Shown here piece after piece: positions 30,910-31,183 of a stretch of 32,000 bases of DNA. This stretch comes from Chlamydiota bacterium (GTDB lineage: Bacteria; Auribacterota; JACPWU01). The number at the start of each line of letters is the position of its first letter. Position 1 is the stretch's first letter. A program made the position numbers and the translations under genes. A model generated the notes under the pieces. It ran no database searches. It saw nothing but the letters and a program-made list of their open reading frames with translations, and had not been told where the DNA came from. The DNA is taken from contig JACPWU010000003.1 in the NCBI GenBank assembly GCA_016196885.1, forward strand, positions 60,001 to 92,000, written 5' to 3'.

Positions 30910-31001
30910 CGACCGAGTCCGGGTACCCGCCGCAGCGGGTGGACGAGGAAGTGGTTGCGACCGAGACGGGTGCCGCGAAGCGGCCGGCGAGGAAGTGGTT
31001 G
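30910..31001 (+). repeat. GC-rich tandem repeat (48 + 44 nt), each unit carrying a hairpin
   Basis: Both units start CGACCGAG and end CGAGGAAGTGGTTG. The unit A hairpin is ACCCGC cgca GCGGGT (30925-30940). The unit B hairpin is GCCGC gaa GCGGC (30972-30984). Confidence 0.75.
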
Positions 31002-31183
31002 GAGCCCGGCAGGGCGGAAACCAGAGCCGAGAGGCAGAAACCATAAGGGGAGACGGAGGGGTTAGATTTTTTTTCATTTTTCCCTTGCTTTTCTCTCCCA
31101 GAAACTTAAGAATCTTCTCAGTTTCTTTTTCCTTATCCAAAGCAACCGGACATTTTCTAGCACAACCTGTGAAGGGGGTAGCG

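Follow-up and report, generated by a model that had tools for sequence, protein, structure and literature searches.

The DNA stretch analysed here, called the window, comprises 32,000 nucleotides (nt) of contig JACPWU010000003.1 (positions 60,001 to 92,000 of the forward strand) from a Chlamydiae metagenome-assembled genome (MAG), and its overall G+C content is 44%. In this window a 410-nt spacer separates an open reading frame (ORF) of 1224 amino acids (aa), with the stop codon at 30774, from an orphan ORF of 162 aa, and a GC-rich module (30910-31043) located in the spacer occupies the loop of a 10-bp hairpin. The module is composed of two copies, one nested in the other, of a GC-rich two-hairpin unit of 58-82 nt designated here as E. 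About 40 E loci overall were obtained from pattern scans, and E is a real, widespread, and structurally constrained family absent from Rfam 15, which amplifies within genomes at precise positions with neither terminal inverted repeats nor target-site duplication. The first-pass annotation of this DNA had regarded the module as a candidate novel structured RNA; the conservation, the structure, and the absence from Rfam 15 agree with that claim, but the occurrence of copies in coding sequences, in tRNA-gene fragments, and antisense to operons points first to mobile insertion and not to a dedicated RNA gene or riboswitch. In our estimation the chances are about even that E is a small non-autonomous structure-dependent insertion element similar to the Rickettsia palindromic elements (RPEs) and the repetitive extragenic palindromic (REP) sequences.

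Composition and nested fold of the module

The GC richness reported in the first-pass annotation, 91 G+C in 130 nt (30911-31040), was confirmed by count, and this segment is the GC peak among all 130-nt stretches of the window (0.708 versus a mean of 0.44 with a standard deviation of 0.053). The AT-rich flank described there as 19/60 G+C corresponds to 31061-31120, while the 60 nt directly 3' of the module contain 26/60. Two units of 48 and 44 nt with identical borders, CGACCGAG ... CGAGGAAGTGGTTG, are indeed present, and mismatch-free occurrences of the 14-mer border are confined to them; the inner hairpins (ACCCGC-CGCA-GCGGGT and GCCGC-GAA-GCGGC), the tail repeat (GGCGGAAACCA / GGCAGAAACCA, direct repeat D5), the 10-bp closing stem (inverted repeat I5), and the T8 run were likewise found as described (Table 1). 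The 159-nt region folds with -73.2 kcal/mol (z = -3.1), and 0/200 shuffles fold as well.

The earlier description of tandem hairpins followed by a tail had to be replaced, since the two units with shared borders are heads (H) only and the true anatomy is that of a nested dimer. A complete unit consists of a head and one tail (T), the order in the window is H1 H2 T1 T2, and heads equal tails in number at every locus. According to this equality and order H2 pairs with T1, while UGGUU of H1 pairs with AACCA of T2, so that the inner unit is enclosed by the outer one; the tails end with GGAAACCA and AGAAACCA. The family-consistent nested fold of 30900-31053 has -67.1 kcal/mol versus -72.5 kcal/mol for the unconstrained optimum. 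The H-H-T-T order was also found in L004/L041, L014/L024, and L021/L036 (an Elusimicrobia MAG with its metagenome twins) and in L049, and in L012 (Omnitrophota), which has the 5' closing-stem arm in common with the window, the sequence is cut after two adjacent heads; the nested-dimer arrangement is present in at least three further lineages. Insertion of E into its own hairpin B would produce exactly the H1-H2-T1-T2 form.

At the window copy, which is situated downstream of a gene, no promoter-like site was found. If the spacer is cotranscribed with the upstream gene, the module would fold into a very stable four-hairpin structure within the 3' part of that transcript, and the window copy may be no more than this. 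Any local effect would be generic at best, such as 3'-end stabilisation or termination, and would not include regulation of the downstream orphan gene, for which there is no evidence in the window. The T8 run could serve as a weak terminator tail. Two other repeats are present around the module. A 19-nt direct repeat (30887-30905 / 31081-31099, TCACTGGTTTTTCTCTCCC / TCCCTTGCTTTTCTCTCCC, 84%) brackets it, with a similar CTTGTTTTTCCCTCCCC before the module in L012, and may have arisen by chance or by local duplication, as at the tRNA-linked copies. A REPIN-like doublet of two 22-nt GTAG-type palindromic units in inverted arrangement (GTAGTCGCCCCATTTATGGGGC / GCCCGATAAATCGGGCGACTAC) lies at 30815-30859 in the same spacer, 50 nt upstream of the module, and has a counterpart at 16665-16720, in which the halves stand in swapped order and a 12-nt spacer is present.

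A covarying family in eight labelled groups

The 5' part of E includes CGA, hairpin A (CC, tandem GA, G, a stem-loop that varies and is often bulged, C, tandem GA, GG), and AAG, and is followed by hairpin B, which is built of UGGUU, G(G)A, a 3-4-bp stem, G(G)A, and AACCA and can be summarised as UGGUU / GGA / GCC-GNRA-GGC / GGA / AACCA. A core of about 30 nt is nearly invariant across MAGs labelled as eight bacterial groups, while the peripheral stems vary in length and large insertions are tolerated at both hairpin tips, for example about 60 extra nt in hairpin B of L042:1809-1875.

The family was collected with two pattern scans. The first, in which the exact head pattern CGACCGAG N20-34 CGAGGAAGTGGTTG was searched against a single genome for each GTDB species, yielded 22 loci. 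Four of these represent chance matches in GC-rich coding sequence; the remaining 18 are true and all continue with the same tail, (G)AGC-loop-GC-GGAAACCA. By MAG label these loci belong to Elusimicrobia (two MAGs, one with five contigs), Omnitrophota (two), Deltaproteobacteria (two), Pseudomonadota (three), Nitrospiraceae, Planctomycetales, and Actinomycetota, and the eighth labelled group is the window's own Chlamydiae MAG. The second scan, performed in a metagenome collection with UGGUUG and the 3' end left free, yielded 34 loci, of which about 21 are true. L002, L007, L008, L010, L023, L025, L027, L030, L033, L038, L039, L044, L048, L050, L052, L053, and L056 were rejected as fortuitous pattern matches within coding sequence. 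No match to E was obtained in phage, plasmid, and E. coli collections, and none in IMG/VR with two patterns.

Rfam 15 gave 0 matches in the window at the gathering threshold and only chance matches at E<=10, none of them on 30910-31043; in 18 related loci it detected tRNAs only, and in 8 small loci at E<=10 nothing recurrent on the element. Literature searches by core sequence returned unrelated primers only, and in descriptive searches the element was not described.

The covariation check proposed in the first-pass annotation revealed homologues with compensatory base changes in many genomes. When it was measured on 27 distinct units with slid 3' partners as controls, 91.1% of cells were paired versus 24-49% in the controls, both-side changes were seen in 11/20 pairs, and the observed covariation score was reached by no shuffle. 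In L029/L054, L031/L042, and L045 the UGGUU/AACCA pair is replaced by UCCUU/AAGGA with the 5' CGACCGAG unchanged, and this joint swap beside a fixed border supports hairpin B. The tail hairpin covaries across the family as well (GCC/GGC, GGC/GCC, GCU/AGC, GCA/UGC). The CGACC/GGUUG pairing, which energy minimisation chose in the window, was rejected because CGACC does not covary and remains fixed while GGUUG changes to CCUUG. The closing helix is strong in only 5/24 loci (p=0.22 versus swapped flanks) and therefore does not form part of the unit. A leave-one-out covariance model, R2, which was built without window sequences, recognised H2 with T1 (30958-31023; 59.6 bits, E=2.7e-12) and H1 (30910-30957; 38.6 bits, E=1.7e-7) and had no further match elsewhere in the window. 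Together with the covarying fold, the window copy has CGACCGAG, the variable hairpin, CGAGGAAG, UGGUU, the tail hairpin, and AACCA and belongs to the E family.

The ORFs across the module are Arg/Pro/Gly-rich, in agreement with the Arg/Pro-rich translations described in the first-pass annotation. It is scarcely credible that one of them, a 64-aa ORF at 30871-31065, codes for a small arginine-rich protein. The open frame with an ATG and the rarity of stop codons in any frame of the units agree with this proposal, but the conservation is in nucleotides and not in amino acids, the compensatory changes keep base pairs, a protein search with the translated element peptide gave no match, and the block spacing shifts the frame (offsets 0/1/2 modulo 3 in 6/9/13 units). 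The element is not a gene fragment, and the units have no reading frame in common. The unit length is a multiple of 3 in 16/28 distinct units (alignment A4 plus the window unit), many of which are related, so that an excess is not established; a length divisible by 3 and the rarity of stops would make survival inside coding sequences easier.

The nature of the folded strand is not indicated by the mismatches, since G.U and A.C occur with nearly equal frequency (10 versus 9) and the data thus do not separate RNA from single-stranded DNA. Tandem 5'-C-GA-G-3' mismatches and C-GAA-G and GNRA loops are stable in both, and tandem G.A pairs are under-credited by nearest-neighbour rules.

Placement of the copies and competing explanations

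Several genomes carry E in multiple copies: it was found on five contigs in one Elusimicrobia MAG, in three copies in one Planctomycetales MAG, and in three copies on one 252-kb metagenome contig. Two of the Elusimicrobia contigs end 55 nt from E, as is typical where an assembly breaks at a repeat. The copies form genome-specific subfamilies: UCCUU/AAGGA is common to all copies on contig Ga0155002_114, a GGC...GCC tail stem to all Elusimicrobia copies, and AGCAYCUGC to all Planctomycetales copies. That every copy in one genome shows the same double compensatory change is in accordance with amplification from a founder.

The most precise positions are found in tRNA-like sequence (hyphens mark the borders of E). 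In the T-loop the arrangement is GTTCGA-E-ATC... in L022, L009, L047/L034, and L037 and GGTTC-E-GAATCC in L029, in fragments extending from the T-loop to the 3' end, while in the D-loop it is GCTCAG-E-T(T)GGTA in L013 (twice in tandem) and L017. Each precise tRNA-loop case is a truncated copy beside an intact gene of the same tRNA (Table 1), and at such borders, for example GCTCAG-E-TGGTAG and GTTCGA-E-ATC, neither terminal inverted repeats nor target-site duplication was seen. L043 is not precise: GGATTCGA stands before E, but about 115 nt of other sequence lie between E and the tRNA 3' fragment. In L037:300-500 the flank ends with ...AGCTCCACCA, resembling the 3' end of transfer-messenger RNA (tmRNA), and weak sub-threshold matches of permuted-tmRNA and tmRNA models overlap there.

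Protein-coding sequences are another site of insertion. A diverged E copy (L018:7198-7262, minus strand, 45.5 bits) adds 66 nt in frame to an SDR epimerase/dehydratase gene, and the closest solved homologue, 6wjb, aligns on both sides of the insert without exactly those 22 residues. A 72-nt copy (L006:4304-4375) lies antisense and in frame in the ORF that, in a type IV pilus operon, stands between the PilO-like gene and the secretin gene, and in L005 E fills the gap between HlyD-like and MacB genes on the opposite strand. Intergenic copies occur in both orientations, and many copies have no downstream ORF, being located beside tRNA genes, beside terminators, or inside coding sequences. The positions of E thus comprise loops of truncated tRNA copies, hairpin B of E itself, intergenic spacers in either orientation, and in-frame coding sequence. 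Its top-strand-specific motifs, stable in RNA as well as in single-stranded DNA, suggest movement via a folded single strand that would be recognised by a factor supplied in trans.

The genes 3' of the copies are functionally unrelated to one another (rpoZ, orn, pal-like lipoprotein, mscL, GspE-like ATPase, Fic, response regulator, and repeat surface protein, named by reading of translations with no family search). Nothing ties the module to the gene downstream in the window, and the first-pass description of that gene was not borne out: the 162-aa ORF (31184-31672, HYZ67_00730) starts 130-140 nt away from the module and not about 120 nt, and the name "STAS-like" was not confirmed because the ORF has no Pfam match at E<=0.1 and its sole homologue in the protein search is itself. 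The proposal that the module is a tandem or nested two-aptamer riboswitch controlling this gene is largely refuted by the lack of gene association and appears very improbable. The conserved junction with variable stems, the nested dimers recalling tandem aptamers, the T8 run, and the ORF downstream are what it would explain, while many copies have no downstream ORF at all, the T8 run is not preceded directly by a stem, no conserved expression platform is present, and no Rfam match was obtained.

Several observations weigh against E as a mobile insertion element. Neither a transposase, an integrase, nor any other recurrent neighbour gene was seen near the copies, a split head-ORF-tail autonomous form was absent from the fetched loci, and no empty/filled-site polymorphism was observed between related genomes; for the window itself no orthologous empty site was found, the downstream protein being an orphan and the C-terminal 500 aa of the upstream protein having no homologue. 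The lack of copies in the phage, plasmid, and IMG/VR collections leaves no evident vector for transfer between bacterial groups. The left flanks share no target (TTCGA, CTCAG, GGTTG, CCTTA, GGCAG, etc.), and the low share of loci with a strong closing helix makes the targeting of hairpin loops a partial rule only. Furthermore, an invariant core in eight groups combined with compensatory stem changes is the usual signature of functional RNA, hairpin B has a GNRA or GNNA tip in about half of the units, and the orientation of the copies with respect to the neighbouring genes is strongly biased (at least 22 sense versus 2 antisense by reading of the loci). In L031, L042, and L045 E starts about 8 nt past a -10-like box. 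Finally, 7/7 copies in two lineages (L004, L011, L014, L020, and L021 in an Elusimicrobia MAG; L049:7992-8059 and L049:1854-1941) end with AACCA directly before UG, and the AUG so formed is the start codon of the downstream ORF, where the identity as rpoZ, orn, or response regulator was checkable for only some of them. For RpoZ, Orn, and the response regulator the N-terminal alignment agrees with expectation, no Shine-Dalgarno sequence precedes these start codons, and the 5' flank of these copies, CCA-UGACC, allows CAUG/CAUG pairing with the 3' flank.

These last points, from the invariant core with its covarying, length-variable stems to the start codons, are shared with another explanation, which we hold possible though on the doubtful side, namely, that E is a functional structured RNA module acting in the transcript. 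It could be a 5' untranslated region or leader that stabilises the mRNA 5' end or sets a Shine-Dalgarno-independent start, a binding site of a conserved host protein, or a small ribozyme with self-cleaving or ligating activity, and the copies in coding sequences and tRNA fragments would then be by-products of recombination. The conserved unpaired purines and tandem G.A beside a variable stem are reminiscent of the core of a ribozyme or riboswitch, lone copies stand between terminators in L001, L003, and L043, and at least 8 copies adjoin tRNA genes and share their orientation. On the other side no gene association exists, two copies are translated through in coding sequences (one of them antisense) and another is antisense in an operon, each genome has its own subfamily, which fits founder amplification, and the G.U and A.C counts contain no strand signal. 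No Rfam ribozyme or riboswitch model matched even at E<=10, and a promoter-like site is missing at the window copy itself, which is preceded by a gene.

A special case of mobility is that E represents a folded single-strand DNA site of recombination or transposition, either an IS200/IS605-type derivative or an attC-like or Xer-like substrate. The missing terminal inverted repeats and target-site duplication are in accordance with it, the direction of replication could account for the orientation bias, and top-strand hairpins with C-GAA-G loops and tandem 5'-C-GA-G-3' mismatches are unusually stable in DNA; nevertheless, no conserved target tetranucleotide was found 5' of E, the two hairpins are dissimilar, RYYYAAC/GTTRRRY boxes are absent, and no HUH or integrase gene was seen near the copies. 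We judge this special case improbable. Somewhat less improbable, but still unlikely, is that E constitutes a new small functional RNA class whose two-hairpin core is active itself and which spreads as an RNA-level or retro-mobile module into RNA loops (tRNA T- and D-loops, itself, and mRNAs), being domesticated in some lineages to define Shine-Dalgarno-less start codons at its 3' end; its own activity could be self-cleavage, ligation, or recruitment of a universal host factor.

As E recurs almost unchanged in these groups and behaves like a small mobile insertion, it may represent a novel type of structured nucleic acid, selfish or modular. REP sequences, RPEs, and organellar GC clusters do not normally extend beyond a single lineage, whereas the E core is near-invariant across the eight labelled groups, in groundwater and sediment MAGs, and E occupies positions defined to the single nucleotide within tRNA-like loops, within itself, and in frame within proteins. 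If mobile, it implies a novel mechanism of structure-guided insertion that leaves no target duplication, and also transfer between distant bacteria; if a functional RNA, it represents an orphan motif of wide distribution and ribozyme-like conservation that in some lineages lies exactly on start codons. Either way it is an easily synthesised target for biochemistry, and it is useful as an annotation marker, as it breaks assemblies and generates spurious Arg-rich ORFs.

Table 1. Parts of the window module and tRNA-linked copies of E at other loci
Feature	Position	Strand	Remarks
Closing stem, 5' arm (TCTCCCCTTA)	30900..30909	+	I5, 100% complementary; near-identical arm before the related module in Omnitrophota L012 (alignment)
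Outer head H1	30910..30957	+	CGA, hairpin A (CC-GA-G, UCC/GGA, GGGU bulge, ACCCGC-CGCA-GCGGGU, C-GA-GG), AAG, UGGUU-G
UGGUU of H1	30952-30956	+	predicted to pair with AACCA 31039-31043
Inner head H2	30958..31001	+	CGACCGAG, hairpin (CG/CG, GGU bulge, GCCGC-GAA-GCGGC), CGAGGAAG, UGGUU-G
UGGUU of H2	30996-31000	+	pairs with AACCA 31019-31023
Inner tail T1	31002..31023	+	GA, GCCC-GGCA-GGGC, GGA, AACCA; distal part and 3' strand of the inner-unit hairpin B
Outer tail T2	31024..31043	+	GA, GCC-GAGA-GGC, AGA, AACCA; closes the outer hairpin B around the inner unit
Closing stem, 3' arm (TAAGGGGAGA)	31044..31053	+	I5; formed in both minimum-free-energy and centroid folds
T8 run	31067..31074	+	13 nt 3' of the closing stem, no stem immediately before; not called by terminator scan
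Truncated tRNA duplicates with E	L013:74-229, L017:1798-1865, L022:1560-1850, L009:5620-5760		
Truncated tRNA duplicates with E	L029:600-800, L047:3150-3300, L043:1100-1440		

Most of the window is filled by three giant ORFs on the plus strand (10-15039, 17163-27248, and 27100-30774; 5009, 3361, and 1224 aa), the last of which has no Pfam match. Between giant genes an islet resembling a toxin-antitoxin system is formed by a DUF5615/PIN-like ORF (15269-15688) and an ORF with a HEPN domain (16187-16600).

Comparison with known systems

Several classes were rejected. E is not a classical miniature inverted-repeat transposable element, as its ends, CGACCGAG... and ...GGAAACCA, are not inverted repeats and target-site duplication is absent, and it is not an integron attC site, which requires RYYYAAC ... 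GTTRRRY boxes in order, while E has UGGUU at the 5' and AACCA at the 3' side. Neither tRNA nor tmRNA was detected in the window by ARAGORN and Rfam; elsewhere E lies within tRNA-gene fragments and is itself not called. CRISPR repeats, retrons, and group II intron domain V, as well as a likeness to RNase P CR-I (GAGGAAGUCC), were rejected because the defining features or any model match were lacking.

The hammerhead ribozyme resembles E in a variable stem flanked by ...GA-G / C-GA... tandem G.A, in two further helices with short junction strands, and in the many copies in scattered genomic contexts. The core of E, however, is CGACCGA / GAGGAAG and not CUGANGA / GAAA, no unpaired cleavage-site nucleotide is present between the helices, and neither hammerhead nor other ribozyme models matched E at E<=10.

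With the palindrome-associated elements of the IS200/IS605 type E shares the lack of terminal inverted repeats and target-site duplication, the top-strand hairpins, and the strong orientation bias, and the parent family is widespread across prokaryotes. In contrast to them E has no fixed 4-5-nt target, its hairpins A and B are unlike each other, and no tnpA/tnpB was found nearby, which places it outside this group.

REP sequences and their doublets, REPINs, which are mobilised by RAYT transposases, are also short structured intergenic multicopy repeats, often 3' of genes, and can stabilise or terminate transcripts. E does not belong to them, as it has neither the 5' GTAG nor the inverted-doublet organisation, and it is conserved far beyond one genus and occurs also in coding sequences and tRNA-like loops.

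Mitochondrial GC clusters, double-hairpin elements, and repetitive hairpin-forming elements are small and GC-rich and spread in AT-rich genomes, and like E they are inserted in intergenic regions, RNA genes, and coding regions (PMC4478555, PMC2800124). They differ from E in being organellar and lineage-specific and in having no core of about 30 nt common to distant hosts.

The closest likeness in behaviour is that to the RPEs, of which 526 were described in R. bellii, 53 of them in protein genes and one in tmRNA (PMC1458961). Both RPEs and E are short, multicopy, and non-autonomous, have a stable predicted hairpin, encode no transposase, and are inserted in frame in protein genes and in RNA genes, which in the case of E are tRNA-gene fragments; the likeness is one of behaviour and does not amount to membership. 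RPEs are found in one genus and are AT-rich like their host, whereas E is GC-rich in any host and has an invariant core in eight groups, consists of two hairpins with ends that are not palindromic, nests in itself, and sits in the loops of tRNA fragments.

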